14,733 nt of DNA from a virus (lineage: Duplodnaviria; Heunggongvirae; Uroviricota; Caudoviricetes), in IMG/VR virus record IMGVR_UViG_2778261529_000003, one strand, 5' to 3'. Within the stretch, counting starts at the first letter, position 1, and each line of letters opens with the position of its first letter. The translations under genes were made by a program, and so were the position numbers. Below are positions 1 through 14,733 of this stretch, in pieces. Under the pieces are notes generated by a model. The model made no database searches, was not told where the DNA came from, and was given only the letters and a program-made list of their open reading frames with translations.

Positions 1-1254
1 ATGCTGGAACAAATGGGCATTGCCGCGAAGCAAGCCTCGTATAAATTAGCGCAACTCTCCAGCCGCGAAAAAAATCGCGTGCTGGAAAAAATCGCCGATG
101 AACTGGAAGCACAAAGCGAAATCATCCTCAACGCTAACGCCCAGGATGTTGCTGACGCGCGTGCCAATGGCCTTGGCGAAGCGATGCTTGACCGTCTGGC
201 ACTGACGCCCGCACGGCTGAAAGGCATTGCCGATGATGTGCGCCAGGTGTGTAACCTCGCCGATCCGGTGGGGCAGGTAATCGATGGCAGCGTACTGGAC
301 AGCGGCCTGCGTCTTGAGCGTCGTCGCGTACCGCTGGGGGTTATTGGCGTGATTTATGAAGCGCGCCCGAACGTGACGGTTGATGTCGCTTCGCTGTGCC
401 TGAAAACCGGTAATGCGGTGATCCTGCGCGGTGGCAAAGAAACGTGTCGCACTAACGCTGCAACGGTGGCGGTGATTCAGGACGCCCTGAAATCCTGCGG
501 CTTACCGGCGGGTGCCGTGCAGGCGATTGATAATCCTGACCGTGCGCTGGTCAGTGAAATGCTGCGTATGGATAAATACATCGACATGCTGATCCCGCGT
601 GGTGGCGCTGGTTTGCATAAACTGTGCCGTGAACAGTCGACAATCCCGGTGATCACAGGTGGTATAGGCGTATGCCATATTTACGTTGATGAAAGTGTAG
701 AGATCGCTGAAGCATTAAAAGTGATCGTCAACGCGAAAACTCAGCGTCCGAGCACATGTAATACGGTTGAAACGTTGCTGGTGAATAAAAACATCGCCGA
801 TAGCTTCCTGCCCGCATTAAGCAAACAAATGGCGGAAAGCGGCGTGACATTACACGCAGATGCAGCTGCACTGGCGCAGTTGCAGGCAGGCCCTGCGAAG
901 GTGGTTGCTGTTAAAGCCGAAGAGTATGACGATGAGTTTCTGTCATTAGATTTGAACGTCAAAATCGTCAGCGATCTTGACGATGCCATCGCCCATATTC
1001 GTGAACACGGCACACAACACTCCGATGCGATCCTGACCCGCGATATGCGCAACGCCCAGCGTTTTGTTAACGAAGTGGATTCGTCCGCTGTTTACGTTAA
1101 CGCCTCTACGCGTTTTACCGACGGCGGCCAGTTTGGTCTGGGTGCGGAAGTGGCGGTAAGCACACAAAAACTCCACGCGCGTGGCCCAATGGGGCTGGAA
1201 GCACTGACCACTTACAAGTGGATCGGCATTGGTGATTACACCATTCGTGCGTAA
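1..1254 (+). CDS. proA: gamma-glutamyl phosphate reductase (glutamate-5-semialdehyde dehydrogenase)
   Basis: 417-aa ORF, ATG at 1, TAA at 1252-1254. Translation is recognisable as enterobacterial ProA with host-like composition. The minus-strand ORFs inside it are antisense artefacts. Confidence 0.95.
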
Positions 1255-1368: not shown

Positions 1369-1444
1369 GCCGATATAGCTCAGTTGGTAGAGCAGCGCAT
1401 TCGTAATGCGAAGGTCGTAGGTTCGACTCCTATTATCGGCACCA
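1369..1444 (+). tRNA. thrW: tRNA-Thr (anticodon CGU), 76 nt including CCA
   Basis: GCCGATA acceptor stem paired with TATCGGC, D-arm GCTCAGTTGGTAGAGC, anticodon loop TTCGTAA (anticodon CGT), T-arm GGTTCGACTCC, 3' CCA at 1442-1444. It lies directly downstream of proA as in E. coli. Confidence 0.93.
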
Positions 1445-1557
1445 TTCTAATGTCTCCCCAAGTCTACTCAAGTATTTAAAAACCTCTTATAATCCGCATG
1501 TTAGCGCCCCTTTTAGTCTTTTGACGTCTACTTAAGTACTCCAAAATCTACAGTCAA

Positions 1558-1610
1558 TTGGGGGTACTTTTGGGGGTATTTGCTGTTCGGTTTAGTGGAG
1601 GTACCCCCAA
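1558..1610 (+). promoter_or_regulatory. inverted repeat in the int leader (TTGGGGGTAC at 1558-1567 and GTACCCCCAA at 1601-1610) with a direct copy TTGGGGGTA at 1570-1578
   Basis: Perfect 10-bp inverted repeat read directly. The 3' arm abuts the GTG start at 1611 and the GGAGG Shine-Dalgarno (1596-1600) lies in the loop. Confidence 0.45.
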
Positions 1611-2825
1611 GTGAAACTCAATGCCCGTCAAATAGACACTGCCAAGCCAAAAGAGAAGGCTTACAAGCTGGCTGATGGTGGTGGTCTGTATCTCTTGGTA
1701 AAACCTAGTGGAGGAAAATATTGGCGCTTCAAGTATCGTGTAGCTGGTAAAGAGAAGCTGTTAGCACTAGGTGTGTATCCTGAAGTTACCTTGGCTGATG
1801 CTCGTGCAAAACGTGAAGAAGCTAAAAGGGGTATCGCTGGGGGTATCGATCCGATGGAAGCGAAACGAGAGGAAAAGATTGCCCGGGAAACGCAGTTAAA
1901 CAACACCTTCAAAGATATTGCCCTTGAGTGGCACAGCAGCAAATTAAAAAAATGGTCTGCTGGTTATGCTTCAGACATCCTCGAAGCCTTTAACAAAGAT
2001 GTGTTCCCTTACATTGGCAAAAAACCAATCGCCGAAATCAAACCACTTGAACTGCTGAATGTGCTGCGGCGCATCGAGGGGCGCGGTGCTACCGAAAAAG
2101 CCAAAAAAGTGAGGCAGCGATGTGGGGAAGTTTTCCGCTATGCAATTGTCACTGGACGTGCTGAGTATAACCCTGCACCGGATCTCACCAGCGCGATGCA
2201 AGGTCATGAATCTAATCATTATCCTTTCCTCACAGCCAAAGAATTACCTGATTTTTTCAAGGCATTGTCCAGTTACTCAGGAAGTGCATTGGTTGTTATG
2301 GCGGCTCGTTTACTGATTATCACCGGTTTGCGGACTGGCGAACTGCGCGGTGCATTATGGGATGAAATCGATCTCAACAAGGCTATCTGGGAGATACCTG
2401 CTTCACGGATGAAAATGCGTCGCCCTCATGTAGTGCCTTTGTCTGAGCAGGCTCTTTCGCTTATTGGGCAGATTAAAGAACTAACTGGCAATTATCCGCT
2501 TATGTTTCCCGGCCGTAATGATCCAAGGAAAACAATGAGCGAGGCTAGCATAAACCAAGTATTTAAACGCATCGGCTATAACGGAAAGGTTACTGGTCAT
2601 GGCTTCCGGCACACTATGAGCACCATTTTGCATGAGCAGGGCTATAACACCGCGTGGATAGAGACACAGCTTGCGCACGTCGATAAAAACTCAATTCGTG
2701 GCACATACAACCATGCGCAATATCTGGATGGGCGGCGGGAAATGCTTCAGTGGTACGCTGATTATATGGATTCGCTCGAGCATGGCGGAAATGTGGTGCA
2801 TGGTGAGTTCGGAAAATGCGGGTGA
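1611..2825 (+). CDS. int: tyrosine site-specific integrase, P4-type (tRNA-targeting)
   Basis: 404-aa ORF with GTG start and GGAGG 10 nt upstream. N-terminus (LNARQIDTAKPKEKAYKLADGGGLYLLVKPSGGKYWRFKYR) is typical of P4-family integrases. C-terminal catalytic region has R..HGFRHT and a tyrosine near the end. Position is adjacent to the tRNA. Confidence 0.9.
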   Translation: MKLNARQIDTAKPKEKAYKLADGGGLYLLVKPSGGKYWRFKYRVAGKEKLLALGVYPEVTLADARAKREEAKRGIAGGIDPMEAKREEKIARETQLNNTFKDIALEWHSSKLKKWSAGYASDILEAFNKDVFPYIGKKPIAEIKPLELLNVLRRIEGRGATEKAKKVRQRCGEVFRYAIVTGRAEYNPAPDLTSAMQGHESNHYPFLTAKELPDFFKALSSYSGSALVVMAARLLIITGLRTGELRGALWDEIDLNKAIWEIPASRMKMRRPHVVPLSEQALSLIGQIKELTGNYPLMFPGRNDPRKTMSEASINQVFKRIGYNGKVTGHGFRHTMSTILHEQGYNTAWIETQLAHVDKNSIRGTYNHAQYLDGRREMLQWYADYMDSLEHGGNVVHGEFGKCG

Positions 2826-2953
2826 CTGGTTGAGTATACAGTAGTAGACTTTGAGCGACGAAAGAAAAGGCTGTGTCTAGGGTCGCTCCCGAAAATCCGT
2901 ACACCTCGACGGACTGGTACAGCCACTACAGTAGAGGACGCTGAGGTGTGCGT

Positions 2954-3751
2954 ATGATTGATATTCATGCCGAATTAAACGAATACAAAAAAGATTTTAT
3001 TTCTTTACGTGAATTTCTTGAGGTCGTGCTTAAGGTCGCTGGTGATGATTATGATGTTTCAGATGTCATAACTTGGATACTCAGGAGAATAAGCGGAGAA
3101 CATATCCGCCTGTACACAGTAAATGAATTTAAGCTGTTGGAATCTTTTTGTAACCCGTATCGGGATGAATTTGATAATGATGTTCTTTATAGAAATCTGA
3201 ATGCGGTTCGGAAACGTGGTTGTTTACCTGGTGAGAGGGATGAAAATGGTTTTCTGGTGTCCGGTTATTGGGAAGATCCCGAATTTGAGAACATTGGATT
3301 TATAAGGGGTGAAATTTTCGCAATTTTTCCCGATGTCCTTGACGCGTTAACGAAGCTGGAAGGCGCTAACTCTTCTGAAAATGACGAGGCACAAGGACGC
3401 GATATTGAAAAGAAAGAGTTGCGTACAGAGGATGATTTATTATCCCAAATCGCAATGCTGGAAAAAGAAAACGCAGAGTTAAGGGCAAGGATAGAGCAGT
3501 TAGAGCAAGAGCGCCCGATACACTTATATAAATACTGGGATAAAGACCCATTAGCTAAGGCTATTGAGATTAGAAACAGAGAGTGGGCCAATTACGATCC
3601 AGAAAATGATTTTGCCACCAGGGGAAATCAAGAAGCGATAACCAGGGAGCTTAAGCAGTGGGGGGCAAGTAATGCACTTGCAACGCTCATAGAGAGGACT
3701 GCCTGCCCTATTAACCGAGACAACAGCCAAAAGAACGCAAAGCCGGATTAA
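2954..3751 (+). CDS. hypothetical protein, AT-rich orphan with C-terminal coiled-coil
   Basis: 265-aa ORF (ATG 2954, GAGG 7 nt upstream, TAA 3749-3751). GC is markedly lower than its neighbours. Predicted coiled-coil segment LLSQIAMLEKENAELRARIEQLEQE. No family recognised by eye. Confidence 0.6.
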   Translation: MIDIHAELNEYKKDFISLREFLEVVLKVAGDDYDVSDVITWILRRISGEHIRLYTVNEFKLLESFCNPYRDEFDNDVLYRNLNAVRKRGCLPGERDENGFLVSGYWEDPEFENIGFIRGEIFAIFPDVLDALTKLEGANSSENDEAQGRDIEKKELRTEDDLLSQIAMLEKENAELRARIEQLEQERPIHLYKYWDKDPLAKAIEIRNREWANYDPENDFATRGNQEAITRELKQWGASNALATLIERTACPINRDNSQKNAKPD

Positions 3752-3766
3752 CGCACCATACCGCAT

Positions 3767-3910
3767 ACCCTGAGGGTGATTTACTGTTACCCTGAGGGTA
3801 TTTTTTTATCTTCCCCGTCAATTTTACCATCACCCTTAGGGTAGATTTCCTCCCGATTACCATCACCCTTAGGGTAGATTTCCTTCCGGTAACCATTAGG
3901 CCTGAGGGTA
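3767..3910. repeat. array of five CC(C)TNAGGG palindromic sites including a 26-bp direct repeat (3825-3850 and 3858-3883)
   Basis: ACCCTGAGGGT at 3767-3777 and 3789-3799; TACCATCACCCTTAGGGTAGATTTCC twice, 33 bp apart; CCTGAGGG at 3901-3908. Lies in the intergenic region upstream of alpA. Confidence 0.7.
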
Positions 3911-3978
3911 TGAAAATATTCGTTATTTCTGTGCCATGATTACCTCGTCAAATTGAGTAGACGTTATGAGGTAAATAT

Positions 3979-4176
3979 ATGTCAAATACGCTTATTCGTT
4001 TAACAGAAGTTCAGCGTAGAACTGGATATAGCAAGGCATGGATTTATCGCCTTATGGGGCAAGGTAAATTTCCTGCATCAGTTAAAATTGGCTCGCGAGC
4101 TATTGCTTTCGTTGAGAGTGAAATTGACGAGTGGATTAATCAGCGTATTGCGGAATCACGCGGAACAGCTACCTGA
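3979..4176 (+). CDS. alpA: AlpA/Vis-family phage transcriptional regulator (excisionase-like HTH)
   Basis: 65-aa ORF, ATG 3979 with GAGG 7 nt upstream. Sequence RTGYSKAWIYRLMGQGKFPASVKIGSRAIAFVESEIDEWINQR matches the AlpA/prophage CP4-57 regulatory-protein pattern. Confidence 0.85.
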   Translation: MSNTLIRLTEVQRRTGYSKAWIYRLMGQGKFPASVKIGSRAIAFVESEIDEWINQRIAESRGTAT

Positions 4177-4253
4177 TTAAATGGCTACGGGGCTATTGCC
4201 CCCAGCTATCCACCAGCAAATAAAAGTAACTTAATTCGATAGCAGGAGTTTTT

Positions 4254-5054
4254 ATGAAATTTCCAAAAACGCCCGTACAGGGGCGGGGCTTCGTTCGGCC
4301 TGAAAACCAGAATCTGCAAAATTTCGGCGAAATTATCCCGGTTATTTCCGGCATTATTGGCGGGTGTGAAACCAATATTGTTAGCGCCAGAGCGTTGCAT
4401 AAGGCGTTAGGTGTAGGTCGCGTTTTCCGTTCGTGGATCAAGGGGCGCATTGAAGAATACGGCTTCACGGAAGGCGTGGATTATGAGGTTGTTGAATATT
4501 TGAGCCGACCCGATCCGGTGAGCGCAAAATCTCGCCAGCAAACAGCTCTTGAGTACATCATTACCGTGAACATGGCAAAAGAACTGGCGATGGTCGAACG
4601 CACCGAACAGGGCCGCGCCGTTCGCCAGTACTTCATCAAATGCGAGGAGGAGCTACACAAGGTAGCGCCAGTGCGTTCCGCAGCTTTACGCCGGGAACTG
4701 AAAGCCCGTATCACCGTTGCCAGCTACTTTAAGCCAATGTGTGCCGCGCTGGAGGCGTACCGGGCTGAACTGGGTAAAAACACGCTCCAGCACCATTACA
4801 CCACGGAAGCCAATATGCTGGCGCGTATCGTGCTGGGTGGCATGACTGCAAAACAGTGGGCGCAGGCGAACGGCATCACAGGCGAACCACGCGACCACAT
4901 GAGCACATTGCAGCTTGAGCACCTTTCTTACCTTGAGCAGAGCAATATCACGCTGATTGAGTTAGGCCAGGACTACCACCAGCGGAAAGCTGAATTAATT
5001 CGTCTTTCGCAGCGTTGGTTAGCCCGTCGCATGGAGGAAAACAGCCATGTGTAA
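4254..5054 (+). CDS. phage antirepressor-like protein (AntA-type N-terminal domain)
   Basis: 266-aa ORF, ATG 4254 with AGGAG upstream. N-terminal ISARALHKALGVGRVFRSWIKGRIEEYGFTEGVDYEV resembles the AntA/AntB antirepressor domain. Confidence 0.7.
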   Translation: MKFPKTPVQGRGFVRPENQNLQNFGEIIPVISGIIGGCETNIVSARALHKALGVGRVFRSWIKGRIEEYGFTEGVDYEVVEYLSRPDPVSAKSRQQTALEYIITVNMAKELAMVERTEQGRAVRQYFIKCEEELHKVAPVRSAALRRELKARITVASYFKPMCAALEAYRAELGKNTLQHHYTTEANMLARIVLGGMTAKQWAQANGITGEPRDHMSTLQLEHLSYLEQSNITLIELGQDYHQRKAELIRLSQRWLARRMEENSHV

Positions 5055-5720
5055 CGCTCTGACCGTTACAAAAAGAGAAAGCGCCCCGTTGCCGGAGCGC
5101 CTTTGTGAACAAATCGCTTACTGCGCCATATTGTTTACTGCCTTTCGGGCAGATTATAGCGTTGTGGTCGCACAGAGTGAAGGCGCTGATCACTGTTACT
5201 ACAGTACGCCAGAAATGCAGAATATTTTGCTGCAAAATGCCGTTAGCCACGCTGTCCGGAAAGCAAAAAATTTTGCTGGTGGCGCGACTGATGCGATTTT
5301 GTCAGGTCACCAGGTGCTGATCAATCTGATGTCTGATTTCGTTCTGGATAAAACAAAGGCGACTGCAGAGGGCCACCAGTGGGAAAGCTACACACTTGAA
5401 CACATTGCCAACAATGCCAGATTTGCGGCTGGTGGGCAATGTGATCAGTGTGCTGGCTTGCTGGTGGGCTATTCATGCTCTTTAACATTGCCATGCCGCG
5501 ATGTTTTCCAGGTATGCGATCCCATTTTTGTGCGCCTGTACTCTTTAAGGAATTGCTCAAGGGCAAAAGCACATGGCGCGAATCTTTCTGATTCATGCTC
5601 TATCTTTCTGCGCCGTCTTTTCCGTGCCGGTGATGGTGTATTGGTTGATTCTTTGTTGGTCATTCTGTGTACCTGTAAAGCAATGCGCCGGAGTTCCTCA
5701 CACCACGGCGATGATAGTTA

Positions 5721-5900
5721 TTATTCTGATTCTTTGGCCTTGCGGCGCTGGCGGCGTTTGATCTCGCCTTTTGCGGCAGTAACTAAAAAACCAGCGGTAC
5801 TTTCGCCAGGTTCTTTAAGTTGCTCAATATCATCCATTACTTCATGTGGGATTCTGACAGTTGTCATTTGTGATTTTGCGTTTTTTGCACCAGTTGCCAT
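5721..5900 (-). CDS. small ribbon-helix-helix (Arc/MetJ/CopG-like) DNA-binding protein, candidate island repressor
   Basis: 59-aa ORF from the internal ATG of the 5721..6077 minus ORF, with AGGAG 9 nt upstream. MATGAKNAKSQMTTVRIPHEVMDDIEQLKEPGESTAGFLVTAAKGEIKRRQRRKAKESE has a beta-strand then two helices, the RHH pattern. Transcribed divergently from the replication operon. Confidence 0.6.
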   Translation of the reverse strand: MATGAKNAKSQMTTVRIPHEVMDDIEQLKEPGESTAGFLVTAAKGEIKRRQRRKAKESE

Positions 5901-5966
5901 TTCTGGATCTCCTAAAAATTGGTGTATGTCAGTATACGCAAAAAAAATGATAAAAAAAGGCTTGAA

Positions 5967-6012
5967 GTGTATTTCACCAGTGAGTAAATTAAAAAGCAAA
6001 GGTGAAATACAC
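5967..6012. promoter_or_regulatory. perfect 12-bp inverted repeat GTGTATTTCACC (21-bp spacer) GGTGAAATACAC, candidate operator in the divergent intergenic region
   Basis: Read directly. Located between the RHH gene start (5900) and the first rightward small ORF (6094), flanked by A-tracts. Confidence 0.5.
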
Positions 6013-6093
6013 CTAAAAGAGCAACGCCCCGCAGTGCTCGCAACACATGCAGGGCGTCTAACCACCAACGATAGCAAGAGTATCGAGGTAGCT

Positions 6094-6297
6094 ATGGGAA
6101 ATCATACCACACACCCGCAAGGGCGGGACTCGCACAACCTGAATAAATACATCTGGCGTTTTATCGCCCTGAGCACGGCACAACCGCGCGTAATTCACAT
6201 CGAGGCCATCAGCGAACAGGAAGCACGCCAGCAATCTCCTGATGGCTGTGTGATGGTATTCGCCGCCCGTATTCGTCAGGGGGTAAGCCATGCATAA
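6094..6297 (+). CDS. hypothetical small protein (67 aa)
   Basis: ATG 6094 with GAGG upstream. Ends in SHA-stop with the 8-nt overlap junction CATGCATAA onto the next gene. This is the terminal segment of the long 5047..6297 frame, so the start is uncertain. Confidence 0.35.
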   Translation: MGNHTTHPQGRDSHNLNKYIWRFIALSTAQPRVIHIEAISEQEARQQSPDGCVMVFAARIRQGVSHA

Positions 6298-6655
6298 CCT
6301 GTCAATTTCTGACCTTAACAGCATTCAGTTTGACGAGAAATTTACCGGGCAGTTGCTGGTCAATGTGGAGAACGGGCGCATAGTGCGTAATTACCACCTG
6401 CCGGATGGTGCAATTGCCGGAAGCGTTGAAGCATTGCTGGAACTGGCGGAACGTGCGCGACTGATTAAGCCGTCAACGAGCCATCACGATGATGATCTGC
6501 ATTTTACCGGGCGTATGGTGAGTCACTACGAAAACGGCGTTGAAGTATCCCGCGAACGGCTGCGTGATGATTGCTGTTTCGGCACACTGCCGGAATTTAT
6601 CGAGTTGCTGACCAGTTGCGGTTATCAGGTCATTCAGGGGGGTGAACATGCGTGA
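6290..6655 (+). CDS. hypothetical protein (121 aa), paralogous N-terminus to 6874..7074
   Basis: ATG 6290. N-terminus MHN...FTGQLLV resembles MHN...FTGRVLV of the 6874 gene. Ends EHA-stop overlapping the next ATG (CATGCGTGA). Confidence 0.6.
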   Translation: MHNLSISDLNSIQFDEKFTGQLLVNVENGRIVRNYHLPDGAIAGSVEALLELAERARLIKPSTSHHDDDLHFTGRMVSHYENGVEVSRERLRDDCCFGTLPEFIELLTSCGYQVIQGGEHA

Positions 6656-6881
6656 TGATCGTTTTAATTCCCTGAAACGGGAGTTTGATGGCGCACCGGA
6701 AGATACATCGGGCGCATTGTTGAGCGTTGCTGACATGATGAAAGCTGCATGTTTTCTTATCAATACCAATGGCTACAAGTCAGAGGGTGAAATGATTCTT
6801 AGTATTGCGTCGGACTATGCGGAATATGTGGCAGAGACGCGTTACAGAAGAAAATTCACGGAGGATGTAAGTCATGCATAA
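6648..6881 (+). CDS. hypothetical small protein (77 aa)
   Basis: ATG 6648 (the track's GTG 6642 is less likely). Ends SHA-stop with junction CATGCATAA identical to that at 6289-6297. Confidence 0.5.
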   Translation: MRDDRFNSLKREFDGAPEDTSGALLSVADMMKAACFLINTNGYKSEGEMILSIASDYAEYVAETRYRRKFTEDVSHA

Positions 6882-7074
6882 TCATGAAGCGCATGTACCC
6901 GTAGCGCTTAATGTGCCAGATGATTTCACCGGACGCGTACTGGTTTACCTGGATAAAGGGAAAGTGAAATCACAATGCCGACTGAAAAGTAATGAGATTG
7001 TTGGTTCTCCTGAATTTTTTTCTGAACTCTGTATTCGTGCGGAAATAAAACCGGAACTGCTGACAGGAATATAA
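6874..7074 (+). CDS. hypothetical small protein (66 aa), paralog of the 6290..6655 N-terminal region
   Basis: ATG 6874 with GGAGG 8 nt upstream. Shared MHN / FTG-R/Q-LV / IKP motifs with the 6290 product. Confidence 0.55.
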   Translation: MHNHEAHVPVALNVPDDFTGRVLVYLDKGKVKSQCRLKSNEIVGSPEFFSELCIRAEIKPELLTGI

Positions 7075-7078
7075 AACC

Positions 7079-7369
7079 ATGAAAAAGAAAAATTCTGGCT
7101 TTACTGCCAGCGGTCTCTCTCGGCCTGAAATCAGACACGGAGATATTTACCGCGACACCAGACGTGGGGGACGAGTGGTTATTCGTCACGTTACGCCAGG
7201 CAATATCACCTACCGCCGTGAGGCTTACGAATATGACTGTGTAATGCCGCGCCGTCAGTTTGAGCGTGATTTTATTCTGGTTGAAAACAAACAACAGGCG
7301 GTGGCGAGACGTGCAGCCACGAATATTAAAAAAATCCGGGCAATGTTGGTTGCGGGAGGTAAGAAGTGA
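7079..7369 (+). CDS. hypothetical basic protein (96 aa)
   Basis: ATG 7079. Stop TGA overlaps the GTG start of the downstream replication gene (GTGA), indicating the same operon. Confidence 0.5.
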   Translation: MKKKNSGFTASGLSRPEIRHGDIYRDTRRGGRVVIRHVTPGNITYRREAYEYDCVMPRRQFERDFILVENKQQAVARRAATNIKKIRAMLVAGGKK

Positions 7370-9171
7370 AAAACGCACCGAATTTAAAATATCAGCCGAA
7401 GGATAAATTCACCGAGGTAATCATTTTGGCCGGGACGGATGCTTACGCCCATGCTCAACACTGGATTGAAAGCGAAGGACGAAAACACGGCGATAACGTA
7501 CCACCTGTTTACCTGGGGCCGAAGCAACTGGCAGACCTGGCGAATATCCGCATTATTGACGAGAAACGCCGCTTTGCGCGTGTCTATCTTGCGGGGGAGA
7601 TCGAGCCAATCCAGATCAATGCTATCGCTGAAAAACTGGCGCTGGCTGGCGTACAGGACGCGAAATTATACAAAGGTATCACCGATCGGGAGCCGGAAAA
7701 CTGGCGCGACTACCTGCAACGGATCCGCGAACAGGCAGAGAGTGGGGAAGTTTCGGCGATGAAATTAGCCACAAAAAATATTGACCTACCCAGGCCAGCA
7801 CTAAATCAGATGGGAGCCAGCCAGAGAGGGGAAGTGTTACTTGAATATTATGGAAGAGCACTGGCTATAAATGATGATTCTGATGTAGTTCACCATTACA
7901 ACGGAATTGTCTGGGTGCCTGTATCTGATAAGGAACTCCAGCGGTCTATGGCGAAGATTTTTATTGATGCTGGAATCAGTTATTCGCAAAACGCCATTAA
8001 ATTTGCCGTAGACACAATGAAATTGAGCCTGCCTGTTATGGGCGGGGCTGACAGGAATCTTATTGGATTCAGTAACGGGGTATTTGATACCAGGACAGGA
8101 AATTTTCGGGAGCACAACAAAAATGACTGGTTGTTAAATGCCAGTGAATTACCGTTCAGCCCACCAGCAGAGGGGGAAACGCTGGCAACACATGCGCCGA
8201 ATTTCTGGAAGTGGTTGCGTCGTTCGGTGGCAGATAATGATCGTAAAGCTGATCGCGTACTGGCGGCATTATTCATGGTACTGGCGAACCGGTACGACTG
8301 GCAGTTATTCCTTGAGGTAACTGGCCCAGGCGGAAGCGGTAAAAGTGTGATGGCGGAGATTTGTACCATGCTGGCTGGTAAGGCCAACACAGTATCGGCA
8401 AGCATGAAGGCGCTGGAAGACGCAAGGGAACGCGCGTTAGTCGTTGGCTTTTCGCTGATTATCATGCCGGATATGGCCCGCTACGCTGGAGATGGTGCAG
8501 GAATTAAGGCAATTACTGGCGGCGACAAGGTGGCAATCGACCCGAAACATAAAGCCCCCTACTCCACACGTATTCCGGCGGTAGTGCTGGCAGTAAACAA
8601 TAACGCCATGTCATTCAGTGATCGCAGTGGAGGGATCTCGCGTCGTAGGGTGATATTTAATTTCTCTGAGGTCGTACCGGAGAACGAACGCGATCCCATG
8701 CTGGTGGAAAAAATAGAAGGCGAACTGGCGGTAGTGATTCGCCACCTGCTTACTCGTTTTTCTGACCAGGATGAAGCCAGACGTCTGTTATATGAGCAGC
8801 AGAAATCAGAAGAGGCACTGGTGATAAAACGCGAGGGTGATTCACTGGTGGACTTTTGCGGCTATCTGATGTCGTTGGTTAAATGTGAAGGAATGATGGT
8901 GGGCAATGCGGAAATAGTGCCATTTAGCCCGAGGCGGTACCTGTATCATGCTTATTTAGCCTATATGTCAGCGCATGGCCTGGGAAAACCAGTATCACTG
9001 ACACGCTTTGGTACAGATATGCCAGGAGCTATGGCGGAATACGGAAAGGAGTATAAGCGGGCTAAATGCACTAAAGGCCAGGATAAAGGGCGAGTGATAA
9101 CAAATGTTCTGTTAGATGATGATGCTGATGGTTGGTTGCCAGCAGCAACAGGGATTAACGACAGAACATAA
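7366..9171 (+). CDS. replication initiator: D5_N domain plus SF3 helicase (P4 alpha C-terminal-like primase/helicase family)
   Basis: 601-aa ORF, GTG start with GGAGG upstream. Walker A GPGGSGKS; D5_N-like segment NGVFDTRTGNFREHNKNDW. Followed immediately by an iteron array. Confidence 0.88.
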   Translation: MKNAPNLKYQPKDKFTEVIILAGTDAYAHAQHWIESEGRKHGDNVPPVYLGPKQLADLANIRIIDEKRRFARVYLAGEIEPIQINAIAEKLALAGVQDAKLYKGITDREPENWRDYLQRIREQAESGEVSAMKLATKNIDLPRPALNQMGASQRGEVLLEYYGRALAINDDSDVVHHYNGIVWVPVSDKELQRSMAKIFIDAGISYSQNAIKFAVDTMKLSLPVMGGADRNLIGFSNGVFDTRTGNFREHNKNDWLLNASELPFSPPAEGETLATHAPNFWKWLRRSVADNDRKADRVLAALFMVLANRYDWQLFLEVTGPGGSGKSVMAEICTMLAGKANTVSASMKALEDARERALVVGFSLIIMPDMARYAGDGAGIKAITGGDKVAIDPKHKAPYSTRIPAVVLAVNNNAMSFSDRSGGISRRRVIFNFSEVVPENERDPMLVEKIEGELAVVIRHLLTRFSDQDEARRLLYEQQKSEEALVIKREGDSLVDFCGYLMSLVKCEGMMVGNAEIVPFSPRRYLYHAYLAYMSAHGLGKPVSLTRFGTDMPGAMAEYGKEYKRAKCTKGQDKGRVITNVLLDDDADGWLPAATGINDRT

Positions 9172-9198
9172 TACGAAATTTATAAGCTGAAACGTAAA

Positions 9199-9540
9199 GG
9201 TAGACGGTTGGTAGACAGATTCACTTAACTCTCTACCAACCATCTACCAATTAATATTTTGAATTATAAAGATATTTTCAATGTGGTAGAGAGGTGGACA
9301 GTTATTTCTATATTCCTAAACCACGGGGGGTATATAAAAAAACAGATAGTTAAGGGTTCATTTTTTAAATTTCTCTTTTAACTGTCTACACTGTCTACCA
9401 TTTAGTAAAAATCATTAATTATCAATGTATTAATGCGGTAGACAGTTAGTAGACAGTTTGCAGATTGTTTTTTTGTTATGAGTTAATAACATTAAATAAA
9501 TCAATAAATTATATCGGTAGACAGTTGGTAGACAGTTGTA
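9199..9540. repeat. iteron-type replication origin: about 12 copies of GGTAGACAGTT in pairs at 11-bp phasing, both orientations, separated by AT-rich tracts
   Basis: Pairs at 9199-9220, 9232-9250 (inverted), 9284-9305, 9380-9400 (inverted), 9436-9460 and 9515-9540. AT-rich candidate unwinding element around 9305-9370. Confidence 0.8.
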
Positions 9541-9543
9541 ACG

Positions 9544-10086
9544 ATGGGGCAAAGCATGACTAAGCTGACCATTAACAGAAAACCGAAAGGCATTTATGGC
9601 ACGCCGCAGAAAACGACGCAGGTGGCACAGGAGCAGGATAAAACCACGTCGGCGCATAAAGTGATGCCCGGTAACCAGAAAGCGCAGCAGAAGCCCACAG
9701 GGGCGACACCGTGGCGGCATATGACCAAGCGCCAGCGCAAAAACCGCAGGCGCATTAACCGCCTCACTGAGTTGTGGCCTGAATTATTCAGTCGGGAAGC
9801 ACCGAAGCCGCTTAAGGTGGGGATATTCGACGACCTGATGCAGGATCTCGCCGTCAGGGGGCTGGCATTCGGTCCAGGGGCATTGCGTGCGACGCTGGCA
9901 TCTTATGCACAGTGTCCGCGCTATTACCGCGCCTTAATGGCTGGTGGGGTACGCTACGACCTGAAAGGCCAGCCGTGCGGCGAGGTGACACCACAGGAAC
10001 AACAGGACGCAGAAACGCGGCTGGTGGCGCTGAATGAGAAGCGCAAACGTCAGCGCCGGGTAGCAAAGGAGAAAACAGGCGCATGA
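9544..10086 (+). CDS. FinO/ProQ-domain RNA-binding protein (RNA chaperone-like)
   Basis: 180-aa ORF (alternative start ATG 9556 with GGGG upstream). Core LTELWPELFSREAPKPLKVGIFDDLMQDLAVRGLAFGPGALRATLASYAQCPRYYRALMAGGVRYDLKGQPCGEVTPQE closely resembles the ProQ N-terminal/FinO domain. Basic tail. Confidence 0.7.
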   Translation: MGQSMTKLTINRKPKGIYGTPQKTTQVAQEQDKTTSAHKVMPGNQKAQQKPTGATPWRHMTKRQRKNRRRINRLTELWPELFSREAPKPLKVGIFDDLMQDLAVRGLAFGPGALRATLASYAQCPRYYRALMAGGVRYDLKGQPCGEVTPQEQQDAETRLVALNEKRKRQRRVAKEKTGA

Positions 10087-10370
10087 TTCACGACAGCAAA
10101 GCGGAAGCACTGGAAGCGCGTGGTCTGTACCGGAGAGCGGCGGCGCGGTGGGCTGAGGTCATCATGCTGGCGAATGATGACAAGGCACGGGAACAGGCGG
10201 CAAAACGTCGCGCGGAATGTATCCGCAAGGCAGCACGCCCACCAGCAAGGCAGGATAATTTCGGGGAGATGCGCGAAACCATCAGCCGGGCACATGCCGG
10301 GATGGGATTACATCAGCCCAATGGTAAGGCATTCAGGAAATACCCTGGATCGAAAAATTGCAGTCAGTGA
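10083..10370 (+). CDS. PerC-family transcriptional regulator-like protein
   Basis: 95-aa ORF; ATGA overlap with the upstream stop. Motif LEARGLYRRAAARW ... KRRAEC ... PPARQDNFGE matches the PerC/Pch pattern as I recall it. Not verified by search. Confidence 0.55.
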   Translation: MIHDSKAEALEARGLYRRAAARWAEVIMLANDDKAREQAAKRRAECIRKAARPPARQDNFGEMRETISRAHAGMGLHQPNGKAFRKYPGSKNCSQ

Positions 10371-10375
10371 CGGAG

Positions 10376-10399
10376 GCCGGGATTTTTCCCGGCTTTTTT
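10376..10399 (+). terminator. Rho-independent terminator (GCCGGG / CCCGGC stem, 6-nt loop, T6 tail)
   Basis: Hairpin and U-tract read directly, 6 bp after the PerC-like stop. Confidence 0.7.
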
Positions 10400-10405
10400 G
10401 TGCCA

Positions 10406-10446
10406 GTAAAAAGCCCGCAGCCAGAAGTGTTGCGGGCTTTGTTTTT
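10406..10446. terminator. second, possibly bidirectional terminator (AAAGCCCGCA / TGCGGGCTTT stem, A-tract 5', T-tract 3')
   Basis: 10-bp perfect stem with 11-nt loop, flanked by AAAAA upstream and GTTTTTC downstream. Confidence 0.6.
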
Positions 10447-10571
10447 CAGGTGATTGAAGTCAATGGGAAGAACGCGATCATCATGCGTTATCGTTTCATA
10501 AATTGCAATAATGTAGATCGTCATTTCAGTTTATGCAATCATAACCATTGTTTTGTTCAGGAGATATGACT

Positions 10572-10745
10572 ATGAGAAAAGCCAGCGTGAAACCCGTTTT
10601 ACTCGCTCGTGATCAGATTGAAGCATTACAGCGCATCCAGGACGAGGAACGCCGCAATTCTCCGCTGGGGATTGCTCCGAGCATTCATGAGGTCGCCCGG
10701 CGTTTAATGCAGCGGGCGCTTTATCCCGTAGAACGTCCGGCCTGA
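10572..10745 (+). CDS. hypothetical small protein (57 aa), possible DNA-binding regulator
   Basis: ATG 10572 with AGGAG 8 nt upstream. First gene after the terminators, so likely the start of a new operon. Confidence 0.4.
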   Translation: MRKASVKPVLLARDQIEALQRIQDEERRNSPLGIAPSIHEVARRLMQRALYPVERPA

Positions 10746-10784
10746 TGGTCGTGATTTTTTGGTGAAAAAAGAGAGGTGGTAAAA

Positions 10785-11363
10785 ATGCCAGCAAGCAAAG
10801 AAGATTTGCGATTAAAACTGATGGAGGTGGTTAACGCTCTGTCAGAGTCGCAGGGAAGCACTCCGCAGGAGATTATCGAAATTCTGAATGCGATCCCCGC
10901 ACAGGATTTCATAAAAGAGGATAACGCGAATCAAAACATCGTCGCGTCAGTCGAAGATGAATCCTCACTGGCAGAAGCCCAGGCTAAAGCGGATTCCGCA
11001 TACAGCAATATGGGCCGTCGCGCTCCGGCCCCGTTTGCTGGTGAAAAGTCGATGGATTACCGCAAACGTGCATTAATTGGCGCACAGAAGCTGGCTAAAA
11101 AATTCAGTGATGTGGATATTCGTTCCGTTTCAGATTCTGCAACGCTGGCGGTGCTGGAAGATCAGATTTACAAGGCTGCTCAGGAAAGTGCTCAGTGGGC
11201 CGTGGAAAACACGCCGGGCCATTTGGGTAAAACCGTAAGAATGGATGAAGCCGGTCGTCGTATTACTGAATATCAAGGAGATCCGAACGTCTGGCTGAAC
11301 GCCTTCAAAATCCCTCCCCGTCGCCTGGTCAAAATTAACGTTGCAAGCCTCGCGGGGGCATGA
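10785..11363 (+). CDS. hypothetical protein (192 aa)
   Basis: ATG 10785 with GAGAGGTGG upstream. Acidic, helical-looking; no family recognised. Confidence 0.55.
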   Translation: MPASKEDLRLKLMEVVNALSESQGSTPQEIIEILNAIPAQDFIKEDNANQNIVASVEDESSLAEAQAKADSAYSNMGRRAPAPFAGEKSMDYRKRALIGAQKLAKKFSDVDIRSVSDSATLAVLEDQIYKAAQESAQWAVENTPGHLGKTVRMDEAGRRITEYQGDPNVWLNAFKIPPRRLVKINVASLAGA

Positions 11364-11380
11364 AAAACGTGCTGAGTTCA

Positions 11381-11410
11381 GCCCTGCCGGATTTGGCGGG
11401 GCTTATTGCT
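11381..11410 (+). terminator. weak hairpin (GCCCTGCC / GGCGGGGC, one G-U pair) followed by TTATTGCTTAT
   Basis: Read directly. Poor U-tract, so may be an attenuator or RNA processing site rather than a terminator. Confidence 0.3.
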
Positions 11411-11427
11411 TATAACCGGATAACATT

Positions 11428-12099
11428 ATGCTTTTAACAGAAATTGAGGCGGCGAAGCAGGTTCGGGACGGACAGCTACCGTCGCCTTATCAGTTTTCCA
11501 ACATGTGGCTGGTTAACCTGCGTATCACAGGAACCGGAATGGCCTACCGCGCCGAAGAAAAAGAATTTGTCTGGCGTTCACCGCAAACTTATCTCAATCC
11601 GCAGTTCCTGGAACGTTGCGCCGGAGTACCCGTCATTATCGACCATCCCGAAAGCAAAACCCTTGAAGACGTGGGCGAACGGTCGCGCATTATTGGCACC
11701 GTCATGTTGCCGTATATTCGCGGTGACGAGGTGTGGGGCGTATGCCGGATTTACGGGCAGGAAATCATCGATTACATCCAGAAAGCACGGGGGGAGGTAT
11801 CCACCAGCCCGTCGGTTGTGTTTTGTGGTGCGTCCGGTGGGGCTGAAGTTCCTGATGTAATGGGCGAGGACAATTTTTTTATTGAGGGTACGCCATTTCT
11901 TATCGATCACGTTGCGCTCGTGCCGCTTGGTGTTTGGGATAAGGGCGGGAAACCATCGGGCGTGGAAGTAACAACGCCGACAGCAGAAGAACAGCTTGCC
12001 GGAATGGTCCGGGACGTTATTGATGCGGCCTGCAAGCCAGCCCTGGAAAAACTGGAAGAAATATCCGGGCGGCTGGCTCAACTGGAAAAAGAAGGGTGA
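11428..12099 (+). CDS. hypothetical protein (223 aa)
   Basis: Protein-like composition in this frame only. The competing 11444..11860 alternative-frame and 11578..12138 antisense ORFs have implausible composition. No obvious Shine-Dalgarno at ATG 11428. Confidence 0.5.
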   Translation: MLLTEIEAAKQVRDGQLPSPYQFSNMWLVNLRITGTGMAYRAEEKEFVWRSPQTYLNPQFLERCAGVPVIIDHPESKTLEDVGERSRIIGTVMLPYIRGDEVWGVCRIYGQEIIDYIQKARGEVSTSPSVVFCGASGGAEVPDVMGEDNFFIEGTPFLIDHVALVPLGVWDKGGKPSGVEVTTPTAEEQLAGMVRDVIDAACKPALEKLEEISGRLAQLEKEG

Positions 12100-12105
12100 G
12101 TCATA

Positions 12106-12633
12106 ATGCTGATGAGTAAGGCAGAATATGCCAAACACAAAGGCGTAAGCCGCCAGACAGTTTACGACTGGATCGATAAAGGCGAAGTGGTCATGTCCGG
12201 TAAAAAAATCGATGTGGAAGCGACAGAGCAGCGGAACAGCCCACCTGCACAGGGAAAAGACACAGTTTCTGAAATGTGGCCAGAGAGAACGCTGGAAATG
12301 ACGTGGGGCGAGTTCTGGAAAGCAGTTAAGGCCAGAGGCGGTAAAATTCCTGCGCCAGCAACGGACGAGGGCATACAGCAGCGTGTGCTGGATGCAGCCG
12401 GGGAATTAGGCTGGGAAGTGCACTTTCTTGATGATGGTGCTATCTGCCTTGAGGATTGCGACGGGCAGCATTACTTTGAACAATACAATTTGCGAGGTAA
12501 TGCCAGGCTGGCAATTCGTATGCTGCGTTGCGAACTCTGCTATGTTGCAGGTGATTATCCCGATGAACTGGAATCATGGAGTGAAGCCGGGCTAAACGCC
12601 CTGGCTGAATGGGAAAAATCAGACCATCAATGA
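12106..12633 (+). CDS. Nu1/terminase-small-subunit-like HTH protein; candidate packaging-redirection (Rpp-like) factor
   Basis: 175-aa ORF. N-terminus MSKAEYAKHKGVSRQTVYDWIDKGEV has the Nu1-type winged-HTH pattern (compare lambda Nu1 KKQLADIFGASIRTIQNWQEQG). Last gene before a repeat array. Confidence 0.55.
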   Translation: MLMSKAEYAKHKGVSRQTVYDWIDKGEVVMSGKKIDVEATEQRNSPPAQGKDTVSEMWPERTLEMTWGEFWKAVKARGGKIPAPATDEGIQQRVLDAAGELGWEVHFLDDGAICLEDCDGQHYFEQYNLRGNARLAIRMLRCELCYVAGDYPDELESWSEAGLNALAEWEKSDHQ

Positions 12634-12635
12634 CA

Positions 12636-12851
12636 TCAAAAAGTGTCAAGTTGAGCAGCTTGCCAGGTTGACACTTTACACTCTGAACGCGAAAAAGTGT
12701 CAACCTCGCTGTAAGCCCCGCCATTACTGGGTTTGTGCCAGATTTACCACGTCAAAAAGCCGAAAAAATCGCGAAAAGTGTCAAGTTGCTATGCTTAGAA
12801 ATGCTAAGGTTTGATAAGGTTTTTCGCGAAAAAGTGTCAAGTGTGTCAACC
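12636..12851. repeat. array of at least five (GCG)AAAAAGTGTCAA sites, one inverted, candidate binding sites for the adjacent HTH protein (cosB/pac-like)
   Basis: Copies at 12638-12653, 12668-12677 (inverted), 12689-12705, 12771-12788 and 12825-12841, plus a half-site TGTGTCAACC at 12842-12851. Confidence 0.65.
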
Positions 12852-13035
12852 GCGCCGCTTTAGAAAACTTTATGTGCAGATCGTTGGATGCATCTGTCAA
12901 AACTTGCCACCCACCAGCACCGCCAGCGGGGATTTTTGGCTACACGCGCTCTAAGTAACAGTTGCTTCAGTGCGTTACATACGTTGGAAGTGTTATAACT
13001 CAAGTTTTTGAGACAAAGTCAGAATTGTATGAATT

Positions 13036-13088
13036 TGTCTATAGCCGTCTACTCAAGTTTTCTACATAATATAAGGAAATAGCATGTT
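13036..13088. other. degenerate copy of the att-proximal arm sequence found just downstream of thrW
   Basis: Collinear anchors TGTCT, 6 nt, GTCTACTCAAGT, 22-23 nt, GCATGTT are shared between 1451-1502 and 13036-13088. ACTCAAGTTTT also occurs at 12999-13009. Confidence 0.5.
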
Positions 13089-13125
13089 GTTTAATTAATG
13101 TACGATAATTCTGAAAGAGTAACAT

Positions 13126-13953
13126 ATGATAAACTTAGATATGGATGTTGTGGTTGGACATGGGCAGAACGATTTTGAAGAATTAGAAATGAATTCCGGC
13201 ATAAAGGTTTTTGCTGGAGCTTCTGACATCACCCAAATTACAACAAGCACTATTTTAGATGATTCAGTCCCCAAAAAATCAACCTCTATACATGGGCTTA
13301 GGAATATGTTCAAACATACATTTGATGGATCGTTTGGACAAAATTTTGAACTTAGAATTGATGATCCTGAAAAGATAAAAAGATTTAATGAAATTGGCAG
13401 GGGTGTTTTTTTTGATGTTATGTCATATTACATCTCTAAAGGAATGGGAATAGCTCACCATCTTAAGAGCCAGAAAGCAATCGACTTAGTAGAGCGTCTT
13501 AAACCGCTTGAAAAACAACTTTTGATAAGAATTCAGGAACCTATACAGAATTTACATAAAACAGTTGAGAAACAAAAATATAATGTACTTCTGAGAAGAA
13601 GAACACCAACTAAAAAATTAGTTGTTGCTAAAATGGATACGCAGACGCTCTTCAATATCAATGTAGAGCATGAATCTGCTCAACCAGTAGAAGAAAATGT
13701 TATTATAACTAGGTTTAATATGTTAACAGGAACTGGTCGATTGTTATTAGATAGACAGTCAGATTCAATTGCCTTTAGACACCATCTTAATTGGGAACAT
13801 GTATTGCAGTCTCAGAAAAATAAGTTTTCAAGGAATCTTGATAGGAATAACAGAGGTGGTAAAGACGCTTTTATACCTATAACCATTTCTGCTTATGAGT
13901 TGCGCGATCATATTGGAGAGCTAAAGGCTTATATAATTAGAGAAATATTGTAA
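13126..13953 (+). CDS. hypothetical soluble protein (275 aa), first gene of an AT-rich cargo operon
   Basis: Long ORF in strongly AT-rich DNA, K/N/I-rich codon usage unlike the island core. Stop TAA 13951-13953 directly abuts the next ATG. No family recognised. Confidence 0.65.
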   Translation: MINLDMDVVVGHGQNDFEELEMNSGIKVFAGASDITQITTSTILDDSVPKKSTSIHGLRNMFKHTFDGSFGQNFELRIDDPEKIKRFNEIGRGVFFDVMSYYISKGMGIAHHLKSQKAIDLVERLKPLEKQLLIRIQEPIQNLHKTVEKQKYNVLLRRRTPTKKLVVAKMDTQTLFNINVEHESAQPVEENVIITRFNMLTGTGRLLLDRQSDSIAFRHHLNWEHVLQSQKNKFSRNLDRNNRGGKDAFIPITISAYELRDHIGELKAYIIREIL

Positions 13954-14733
13954 ATGAAGATGCCCTCAATCAAAGTTATTTCACTTATATTAATAGCTAT
14001 TGTATGGTATTTTTACTTTTCTCATTTCAATCATTGGGATAGCCCGTTAGATATCTTTAATGCTAGCAAATGGATGGGTTTTTCCAATGATAAAGGTGAT
14101 TGGGGCACTTTCGGGGATTTTGTAGGAGGTGTGCTTAATCCTATCTTGACCTTCATTACAATTGTTATGCTCATTAATTCCTTGAAACTTCAACGAGAAG
14201 CAAACGAGCAACTAATTAAAGACGAAAGAAGACAAGAGAAAGACGTTCTTCTAAAACGGTTTGAAGACGGTTTTTATAACCTTATCTCTTCAGAAAGAGA
14301 GGAGTTTAGTTGTTTTACTATTAACATTAACGGAAAAGAATACCGCTCATCTGCTGCTGTTAGTGAATTGGAAGAGGCAATATGGGCTTTTATTGAGAAA
14401 CAAATAGATGAAAAAGGAGCTTGCGAAATTGAGGATGTTAAAAATTACATAAATAAAATTGATGAGGATTCATCTATGGCAATATTTTCCATGGTGCGAT
14501 GTGTATATGTTGTTTTTAAGGTTGTTAAGGATAAATGCCCTGAAGAACATCAAGATTACTACTTAGATATTTTTATGAATATGTTACCAGTTAAACTGGT
14601 AAATTTAGTTGCTATTGTGTCTGTGTATATGGACTGGAAAAACGTAAAATATATTATTGATGGTGGAAAAGGATTTTCGGATAATGAAGCAGTTAAAGAA
14701 TATATTAATACTTGGAAGGAGTTTCATGAATAA
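13954..14733 (+). CDS. hypothetical membrane protein (259 aa) with two N-terminal transmembrane helices, candidate effector
   Basis: Hydrophobic segments VISLILIAIVWYFYFSHF and FGDFVGGVLNPILTFITIVMLINSL, then a charged, probably helical cytoplasmic domain. Zero-nt intergenic spacing from the upstream gene. Confidence 0.7.
   Translation: MKMPSIKVISLILIAIVWYFYFSHFNHWDSPLDIFNASKWMGFSNDKGDWGTFGDFVGGVLNPILTFITIVMLINSLKLQREANEQLIKDERRQEKDVLLKRFEDGFYNLISSEREEFSCFTININGKEYRSSAAVSELEEAIWAFIEKQIDEKGACEIEDVKNYINKIDEDSSMAIFSMVRCVYVVFKVVKDKCPEEHQDYYLDIFMNMLPVKLVNLVAIVSVYMDWKNVKYIIDGGKGFSDNEAVKEYINTWKEFHE

Follow-up and report, generated by a model that had tools for sequence, protein, structure and literature searches.

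Most of the 14,733-nucleotide stretch of DNA analysed here (IMG/VR record IMGVR_UViG_2778261529_000003; hereafter the window) appears to be a phage-inducible chromosomal island (PICI) of the Gram-negative EcCI lineage, inserted in the 3' end of the tRNA-Thr gene thrW and extending from position 1428 to approximately 270 bp beyond the end of the window. On homology, gene order and attachment (att) sites we put the probability of this assignment at about 0.85. The island is a new mosaic of a well-described element type, combining the integration module of EcCIMP1 with an EcCICFT073-type backbone, a third kind of late module and swappable cargo, and a PICI at thrW was already anticipated by EcCIMP1 at the same site. 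A first-pass annotation of the window had proposed a PICI-like or P4-like island at thrW. The PICI part of that proposal is supported by homology to EcCIMP1 and EcCICFT073, att sites with arm repeats, a length of 13.6 kb, an iteron origin and rightward gene order. As such the island adds little to the PICI concept and is a clean example of module shuffling. PICIs transfer PerC-family virulence regulators and anti-phage genes at high frequency from one enterobacterium to another, and they influence the range of phages able to multiply in a given strain.

Integration site and limits of the island

The tRNA gene serving as integration target is the same gene as K-12 thrW, downstream of proA. In K-12 it is occupied by CP4-6, the content of which is unrelated to the island, and the first-pass annotation was correct in naming this as the CP4-6 locus with a different content. 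The attL core, TCCTATTATC, occurs in a single copy in the window, inside the tRNA, and an identical core was reported for EcCIMP1 (PMC11773190). Both limits proposed earlier, 1445 and 14733, are therefore too narrow, the first because the core lies inside the tRNA and the second because the element runs on past the window. The window ends at the stop codon of the last gene, and for this reason attR is not visible in it. Boundaries were determined in contigs encoding a Pri-Rep protein identical to that of the window. In the loci L010-L015, and likewise in S40, attR has the form TCCTATTATCG-CACCA and is separated by 257-272 bp from the end equivalent to that of the window; for the collinear contigs this corresponds to positions of about 14990-15005. 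The repeat that the first-pass annotation expected to the right is present in all seven of these related loci. Over its entire length the window is collinear with L014 (99.7%), L015 is 99.96% identical to it over 1399-14733, and because attR could be located in such collinear contigs, the island can be assigned a length of 13,562 bp from core to core (L014/L015).

Repeats of TGGGGGTA that are candidate arm-type sites of the integrase accompany both ends. The window has four copies against 0.31 expected, a number reached in 0 of 200 shuffles, and a pair of the repeats is found approximately 80 bp inside attR in seven of seven related loci. In the same seven (attR at 30983-30998 in L001, and in L010-L015) the tRNA fragment at attR lacks one G of the acceptor stem, as seen by comparing TCCTATTATCG-CACCA with TCCTATTATCGGCACCA. 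A 1-nt deletion, or “damage”, of the attR tRNA fragment has been reported for PICIs at tRNA-Thr (PMC10111431). If crossover takes place in TCCTATTATC, excision would leave thrW damaged, which is the “addiction-like” effect proposed in that study (PMC10111431).

Beyond attR, the chromosomal pao genes follow in L011, L015 and S40. In L013 a prophage lies to the right of attR, and a full prophage just beyond the window had been named in the first-pass annotation as an outcome that would speak against an island. That prophage is however a separate one of the SfIV type, located on the far side of attR and possessing its own integrase (99.5% identity to the Shigella phage SfIV enzyme); since the integrases are different, the exact crossover sites of the island and of this prophage may differ. 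Tandem arrays at thrW were seen in L013 (18339-21806, an SfIV/SfV-type prophage abutting the island attR), in L014 (beyond 17640) and in L015 (1-4033), where another element precedes the island together with only a 3' fragment of a tRNA.

Several features by which PICIs were defined (Fillol-Salom et al. 2018) are found in this element. An integrase is present together with flanking att sites, attR being seen in the collinear loci L011, L014 and L015 and in S40. An AlpA-type gene with a predicted regulatory role lies downstream of int, and next to the Pri-Rep gene, on its downstream side, there is an origin in which AT-rich DNA lies between two sets of iterons. The size is within the range of about 12-15 kb and transcription is mostly rightward, with all assigned genes on the plus strand except for two small genes at 5469-5900. 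Phage structural and lysis genes are absent from PICIs by definition, genes for capsid morphogenesis or hijacking being allowed, and two genes derived from head assembly are found here.

Relationship to EcCIMP1, EcCICFT073 and other islands

The closest counterpart of the left end is EcCIMP1, a PICI of E. coli MP1 (Pick et al., ISME J 2025, PMC11773190), which has the same target, the tRNA-Thr gene between proA and yagU, and the same core. In the window the integrase gene begins 166 bp downstream of the tRNA in the same orientation, and its product is 96.5% identical in amino acids (aa) to the integrase of EcCIMP1. The AlpA protein is 81% identical to the one encoded downstream of int in EcCIMP1, where it is required for excision and transfer, while the AntA-type protein matches at 59% and the PerC-family gene at 46%; the gene order of the left end is the same. 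EcCIMP1 requires the helper Kapi1, int and the int-adjacent alpA for excision and transduction (PMC11773190), and by sequence AlpA is the predicted master activator of the island studied here. Nevertheless, the two are not the same element. EcCIMP1, which the P22-like phage Kapi1 mobilises, is 19,963 bp long and has a TOPRIM/DUF927 primase together with DUF2824 and P22-like ejection genes; it has no match to the Pri-Rep, ProQ, 195-aa, DUF2213, 175-aa or cargo proteins of the window. DNA similarity to the MP1 locus ends at window position 2801, within int, and beyond int the only protein matches to EcCIMP1 are AlpA, AntA, the Icd-like protein, PerC and one 65-aa open reading frame (ORF).

The backbone resembles that of EcCICFT073, the prototype Gram-negative cos-type PICI (Fillol-Salom et al. 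2018, 2019), which is of a similar size class and is also transcribed rightward. The order shared by the two comprises int, alpA, the leftward YlcI/YnfO gene, the Icd-like gene, small genes, DUF4222, Pri-Rep, the iteron origin, PerC, head-derived genes, and a winged helix-turn-helix (HTH) protein with a DNA site. Identity to the EcCICFT073 homologues amounts to 93% for the Icd-like protein, 52% for DUF4222, 44% over the full length for Pri-Rep and 53% for PerC, genes of the latter family being typical of E. coli PICIs. In contrast, the integrases are only 25% identical and the att site of EcCICFT073 is roxA-phoQ. The late modules differ as well, that of EcCICFT073 having capsid-like and decoration-like proteins and Rpp, with two exact copies of lambda cosN, and that of the window protease-like and scaffold-like genes and an HTH protein that is not Rpp.

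For the Pri-Rep of EcCICFT073, a function in ori-dependent replication has been demonstrated (PMC6092414). Next to its homologue in the window lies the predicted origin. With at most one mismatch allowed, GTAGACAGT is matched 13 times in the window, where 1.5 matches would be expected and where a count of 13 was attained in 0 of 200 shuffles; ten of the 13 fall within 9200-9536, in both orientations and around AT-rich DNA. Iterons flanking AT-rich DNA are the published layout of E. coli PICI origins (PMC6092414). Pfam matches and repeat counts thus place int, alpA, the small genes, the D5_N/SF3 (superfamily 3) initiator and the iteron origin where the first-pass annotation had put them.

The same backbone occurs with other integrases at other att sites, namely yicC-dinD in A17 and smrA-abgR in STEC719, and the order of the small genes ahead of Pri-Rep is the same in S40, A17 and CFT073. 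The lineage is a common one: the region of the Icd-like gene was matched in 1,799 of 5,426 complete E. coli genomes. Coverage of the window did not exceed 87% in any complete E. coli genome of the collection. The island also has the four zones (Integration, Bro, Replication and Late) described for helper-embedded or tRNA-targeting PICIs of Enterobacteriaceae (Williams lab, PMC10111431). Those at tRNA-Thr leave a damaged attR tRNA fragment, as here, and Klebsiella relatives of the HTH and DUF2213 genes are located inside late regions of prophages. The island in the window differs from the helper-embedded PICIs in occupying a chromosomal tRNA gene and not the interior of a helper prophage.

Late module and candidate helper phages

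The useful new lead provided by this island is its late module, in which head-protease and scaffold genes, together with co-occurrence with Rac-SA53-type prophages, yield a concrete and testable prediction of the helper. The 195-aa protein, which has no match in Pfam or NCBIfam, and the 223-aa DUF2213 protein match different parts of the same PHROG, the latter covering positions 115-328 of phrog_6216. They likewise correspond to different parts of a single 430-aa protein of Rac-SA53, the 223-aa protein to residues 3-226 (54% identity) and the 195-aa protein to residues 295-423 (64% identity). One head gene is therefore represented in the island by two separate genes, one for each half, which stand in the reverse order and lack the Ala/Glu/Lys-rich linker. 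Both parts form a single protein in Rac-SA53, in Klebsiella RothC/D and Chronis, in Pantoea PdC23 and in some Yersinia phages, and in the annotation of Rac-SA53 and RothD the fused gene has the portal/head-morphogenesis genes on one side and the major capsid gene on the other. Residues invariant among the island and phage homologues (His73, Ser125/Thr126/Ser127 and Glu153) are kept in the island copy of the 223-aa protein, as are the nearly invariant Asp160/His161; the protein thus retains conserved residues of the catalytic type. Many phage versions (e.g. P0152, P0153 and P0160) have a NUDIX hydrolase domain fused N-terminally to the DUF2213 protease domain, and because of this fusion the head gene bears misleading database annotations such as “NUDIX hydrolase” or “TolA”.

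No family match to a major capsid, portal, large terminase, tail or lysis protein was found among the ORFs scanned. The first-pass annotation had listed capsid, tail and lysis genes as lacking, which holds for these families but overlooks the two head-assembly genes. Islands that differ in integrase and att site were found to carry the late module. In STEC719, a sister PICI (L009 27013-30310, at smrA-abgR) keeps a 192-aa gene and the DUF2213 gene without the HTH gene, in whose slot it has a 205-aa protein 80% identical to rac52 of Rac-SA53, a lytic transglycosylase 50% identical to that of the phage, and a 174-aa gene. This PICI lies approximately 7 kb from a Rac-type prophage at ttcA. The idea that it is a satellite embedded in that prophage was rejected, as the two occupy neighbouring att sites (ttcA and smrA-abgR).

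The third protein of the module, of 175 aa, is followed directly by an array of AAAGTGTCAA sites, of which all five exact copies in the window fall at 12640-12840, within 200 bp. The motif AAAGTGTMAA is also present directly 3' of the homologous genes of A17, of Klebsiella, where the protein has 57% identity, and of Enterobacter, where it has 37% identity and the adjacent morphogenesis genes belong to the alternative, S40 type. The protein family is confined to islands of Enterobacterales; no phage homologue was found, and no similarity to the TerS (small terminase subunit) proteins of the candidate helpers was seen. The corresponding slot of EcCICFT073 is filled by Rpp (E = 5e-31 to PDB 6HLK). 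Rpp and the 175-aa protein match the same N-terminal part of the phrog_57 TerS, but compared with each other they have only a 28-residue HTH stretch in common, with a probability of 27%, and homology to RppA/RppC was not found. Of the “Nu1-like HTH plus repeat array” of the first-pass annotation, the TerS/Xis-type winged HTH and the array are thus real, whereas the protein is not an Rpp homologue. Lambda cosN has no match in the window at up to two mismatches, while EcCICFT073, used as a positive control, gave its two exact copies flanking rpp.

Position and analogy suggest that the 175-aa protein has a role in packaging, and the odds that it forms with the repeats a packaging-site recognition unit, analogous but not homologous to Rpp/cosB, seem to us nearly even. 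The gene occupies the exact rpp slot of EcCICFT073, at the end of the late operon and beside a DNA site, and matches the same TerS part. It is also possible, though less likely, that the island is a PICI in which protein and array do not serve packaging and instead represent a Cox/Xis-type regulator, a directionality factor or a centromere-like system. The weak NCBIfam matches of the protein to excisionase and RacR families would fit such a role, as would the lack of a phage homologue and of TerS homology beyond the HTH, and a C-terminal domain unlike the TerS oligomerisation core. However, the repeats are located approximately 2.1-2.3 kb from attR with the cargo genes in between, and because this distance exceeds 2 kb, a directionality factor acting at att is disfavoured; the excision and activation role is moreover already filled by AlpA in the EcCIMP1 module.

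In Klebsiella pneumoniae (L016 and L017), satellite-like elements with a homologue of the HTH protein lie within the late region of an E217/Pam3-like myovirus prophage. The L017 homologue follows genes of 185 aa and 222 aa, in the same order as in the late module of the window, and a truncated Major_capside gene marks the junction, whereas L016 shows duplicated Dit_like/Pam3_gp18 genes. The arrangement looks like a helper-embedded PICI configuration.

A head module of the Rac-SA53 type is present in 90 of the 5,426 complete E. coli genomes, including those of E. coli W, A17, JNU and EC11, and the co-occurrence analysis used 60 listed genomes of these 90. When the late module of the island was counted at a coverage of at least 74%, it was found in 34 genomes, at least 15 of which are among the 60 listed, compared to 0.38 expected (hypergeometric P = 1e-21, ignoring clonality). 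The co-occurring islands are at several loci, in strains from otter, baboon, cattle, goat, pig and environmental water. Because islands with this late module co-occur with Rac-SA53-type prophages, we infer that phages of this type, which have a T4-like large terminase, are the helpers. Tentatively, and at less than even odds, the late module may be an undescribed hijacking system directed against Rac-SA53-type phages (with their DUF2213 head protease and T4-like large terminase), in which the split and reordered copy of the helper's protease-scaffold gene would tamper with procapsid assembly or maturation, and the HTH protein would mark island DNA for the helper terminase. The module suggests a mechanism of packaging redirection different from Rpp/cos.

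The following model of the island life cycle can be proposed. The arm-binding tyrosine integrase would hold the island at TCCTATTATC until lytic growth of a helper turns on alpA, as was shown for the 81%-identical alpA of EcCIMP1. AlpA would then bring about excision and expression of the rightward operon, and the SF3 helicase-primase Pri-Rep would fire the adjacent GGTAGACAGTT iteron origin. Finally, the late module (the proteins with scaffold domain, prohead-protease fold and winged HTH, plus the AAAGTGTCAA array) would act on head assembly and DNA packaging of the helper, the HTH protein and the repeats possibly marking island DNA for packaging as Rpp does with cosB in EcCICFT073, by analogy and not by homology.

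A number of observations weigh against the island being a PICI that works in this way. The original definition includes an att site never used by prophages, and this does not hold at the level of the target gene, because thrW carries CP4-6 in K-12 and an SfIV-type prophage in L013; as thrW is common to PICI, CP4-6 and SfIV-type prophages, that part of the definition appears unfit at this level. Neither a terminase gene nor a recognisable cos or pac site was identified, and the fold of the HTH domain is common to excisionases and Cox-type regulators. As for the helper, 19 of the 34 module-bearing genomes are not among the 60 listed helper-module genomes, and related strains, among them several porcine enterotoxigenic E. 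coli, make the co-occurrence statistic too favourable.

An improbable alternative is that we are dealing with a decayed, immobile remnant, i.e. a cryptic prophage or dead satellite that persists as a cargo-bearing chromosomal island. Some relatives do have insertion sequences (IS3 in several genomes and an IS200-type element in L013) or a frameshifted PerC (S40), and a SatelliteFinder-style scoring would probably return the uncertain “Type C” class, as for EcCIMP1. In the window, however, all core genes are intact and of full length, and attL and attR with their arm-type repeats are intact in relatives. Furthermore, an identical Pri-Rep protein occurs in 57 blocks of the assembly collection, the late module moves among islands with differing integrases and att sites, and in the six loci that were inspected, exchanged cargo and tandem arrangements imply recent mobility.

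A P4-like satellite exploiting P2-type helpers via Sid/Psu/Delta and a P2-type cos is largely refuted as an explanation and very improbable: the element has a P4-type arm-binding integrase, an AlpA-family (AlpA/Vis-type) small HTH gene, an SF3 primase-helicase with adjacent iterons that scores below threshold to the P4-family primase C-terminal domain TIGR01613 (97 bits vs. a cut-off of 108.7) and, like P4, a size near 11-14 kb, but the P2/P4 cos has no match in the window at up to three mismatches, no family match to Sid, Psu, Delta or Epsilon was found among the ORFs scanned, gene order and homologies fit EcCICFT073 and EcCIMP1 instead, and int, AlpA and Pri-Rep are in the literature the only, distant, links between P4 and PICIs. 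A capsid-forming PICI (cfPICI) was likewise rejected, since an own major capsid, portal, head-tail connectors and large terminase were not detected among the ORFs scanned, where only the protease-fold and scaffold-domain genes were found.

Accessory genes and cargo

The features of the window are collected in Table 1. Missing from the list of the first-pass annotation were the AntA, ProQ/FinO and PerC genes, the int-alpA RNA motif and the low-GC cargo pair.

Table 1 Features of the window and the evidence for their assignment
Feature	Position	Strand	Evidence and remarks
proA	1-1254		
tRNA-Thr (anticodon CGU, thrW), integration target	1369-1444	+	ARAGORN; Rfam tRNA 71.8 bits
attL	1428-1444	+	core TCCTATTATC at 1428-1437, within 17-nt identity block TCCTATTATCGGCACCA common to attR
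Three TGGGGGTA repeats, candidate integrase arm-type sites	1559-1609	.	between tRNA and int
Tyrosine integrase, arm-binding, P4-integrase type	1611-2825	+	Pfam Arm-DNA-bind_3, Phage_int_M, Phage_integrase
int-alpA RNA motif	2870-2937	+	Rfam RF02996, 45.5 bits vs. gathering score 35.8; full-length match
267-aa protein in int-alpA gap, accessory slot	2948-3751	+	GC 0.41-0.44
AlpA-family regulator	3979-4176	+	Pfam Phage_AlpA, E 2.4e-19
AntA/KilAC-type antirepressor-like protein (“Bro zone”)	4254-5054	+	Pfam AntA, E 2.4e-23; phrog_5817 anti-repressor, E 7e-41
Two small leftward genes	5469-5900	-	64-aa ORF 5469-5663; YlcI/YnfO-family gene about 5721-5900 (NCBIfam NF041551, E 4.9e-17)
Icd-like small protein, first gene of rightward replication operon	6094-6297	+	NCBIfam NF033153, E 5.6e-19
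Four small overlapping genes, the last DUF4222	6290-7369	+	ORF list; Pfam DUF4222, E 1.4e-19
Pri-Rep, 601 aa	7366-9171	+	Pfam D5_N, SF3 helicase domain (DUF5906), Pox_D5 C-terminal domain; phrog_864 DNA primase, E 2.5e-155
Predicted replication origin	9190-9540	.	GGTAGACAGTT iterons in both orientations, flanking AT-rich DNA (GC 0.35)
ProQ/FinO-domain protein	9544-10086	+	Pfam ProQ, E 1.2e-23
PerC-family regulator	10083-10370	+	Pfam PerC, E 2.2e-32
195-aa protein, like C-terminal (scaffold-like) domain of phage head protein	10776-11363	+	phrog_6216 positions 409-544, E 4.5e-47
223-aa DUF2213 protein, prohead-protease/assemblin fold	11428-12099	+	
175-aa protein	12106-12633	+	N-terminal TerS/Xis-type winged HTH; C-terminal domain without structural match
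AAAGTGTCAA site array, candidate binding or packaging site	12634-12855	.	four direct copies, one inverted, plus GTGTCAACC half-site
Low-GC two-gene cargo, 275 aa and 259 aa	13126-13953 and 13954-14733	+	GC 0.32-0.35; phrog_13337, phrog_8999

The gap between int and alpA is a cargo slot. The 267-aa protein encoded there has no match in Pfam, PHROG, PADLOC or NCBIfam, and A17 has a different gene at this position. The int-alpA RNA motif, located between int and the gene for the 267-aa protein, may contribute to controlling either alpA or the accessory gene; a permissive Rfam scan of 2800-6400 gave no regulatory RNA besides this motif. The position of AntA is filled in relatives by pRha, GIY-YIG or ORF6N proteins, and the C-terminus of AntA gives a PDC-S22 match in PADLOC. 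Terminator-like hairpins were noted on the minus strand at 5103-5078 and, a strong one, at 10410-10440 after the PerC gene. The arrangement of the small leftward genes is the same in S40, CFT073 and L012. A 416-aa ORF at 5047-6297, called as a gene in some assemblies (L013, L014), was rejected as probably spurious, because it has no family match and because small genes with family support, YlcI/YnfO and Icd-like, overlap it on the two strands.

The right end of the island is a swappable cargo slot among otherwise near-identical islands. The same pair of 275-aa and 259-aa proteins is found in the slot of S40, while L010 (15841-17610) has a 589-aa protein with a GmrSD_N domain instead, and L012 (16183-17781) a 532-aa protein without assignment. 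Neither member of the pair has a Pfam or NCBIfam match. PADLOC, applied to the cargo and accessory proteins, returned two whole-protein matches to PDC-M02B (E = 2.4e-4 and 2.8e-3), with no single stretch passing the per-stretch cut-off. A translated region of Klebsiella phage Kp4865-4 shows 92% identity to the 275-aa protein, and distant homologues of the 259-aa membrane protein carry Pfam PF16872 (putAbiC, putative abortive infection protein), so the pair may be a candidate abortive-infection system or an unclassified two-gene anti-phage cassette.

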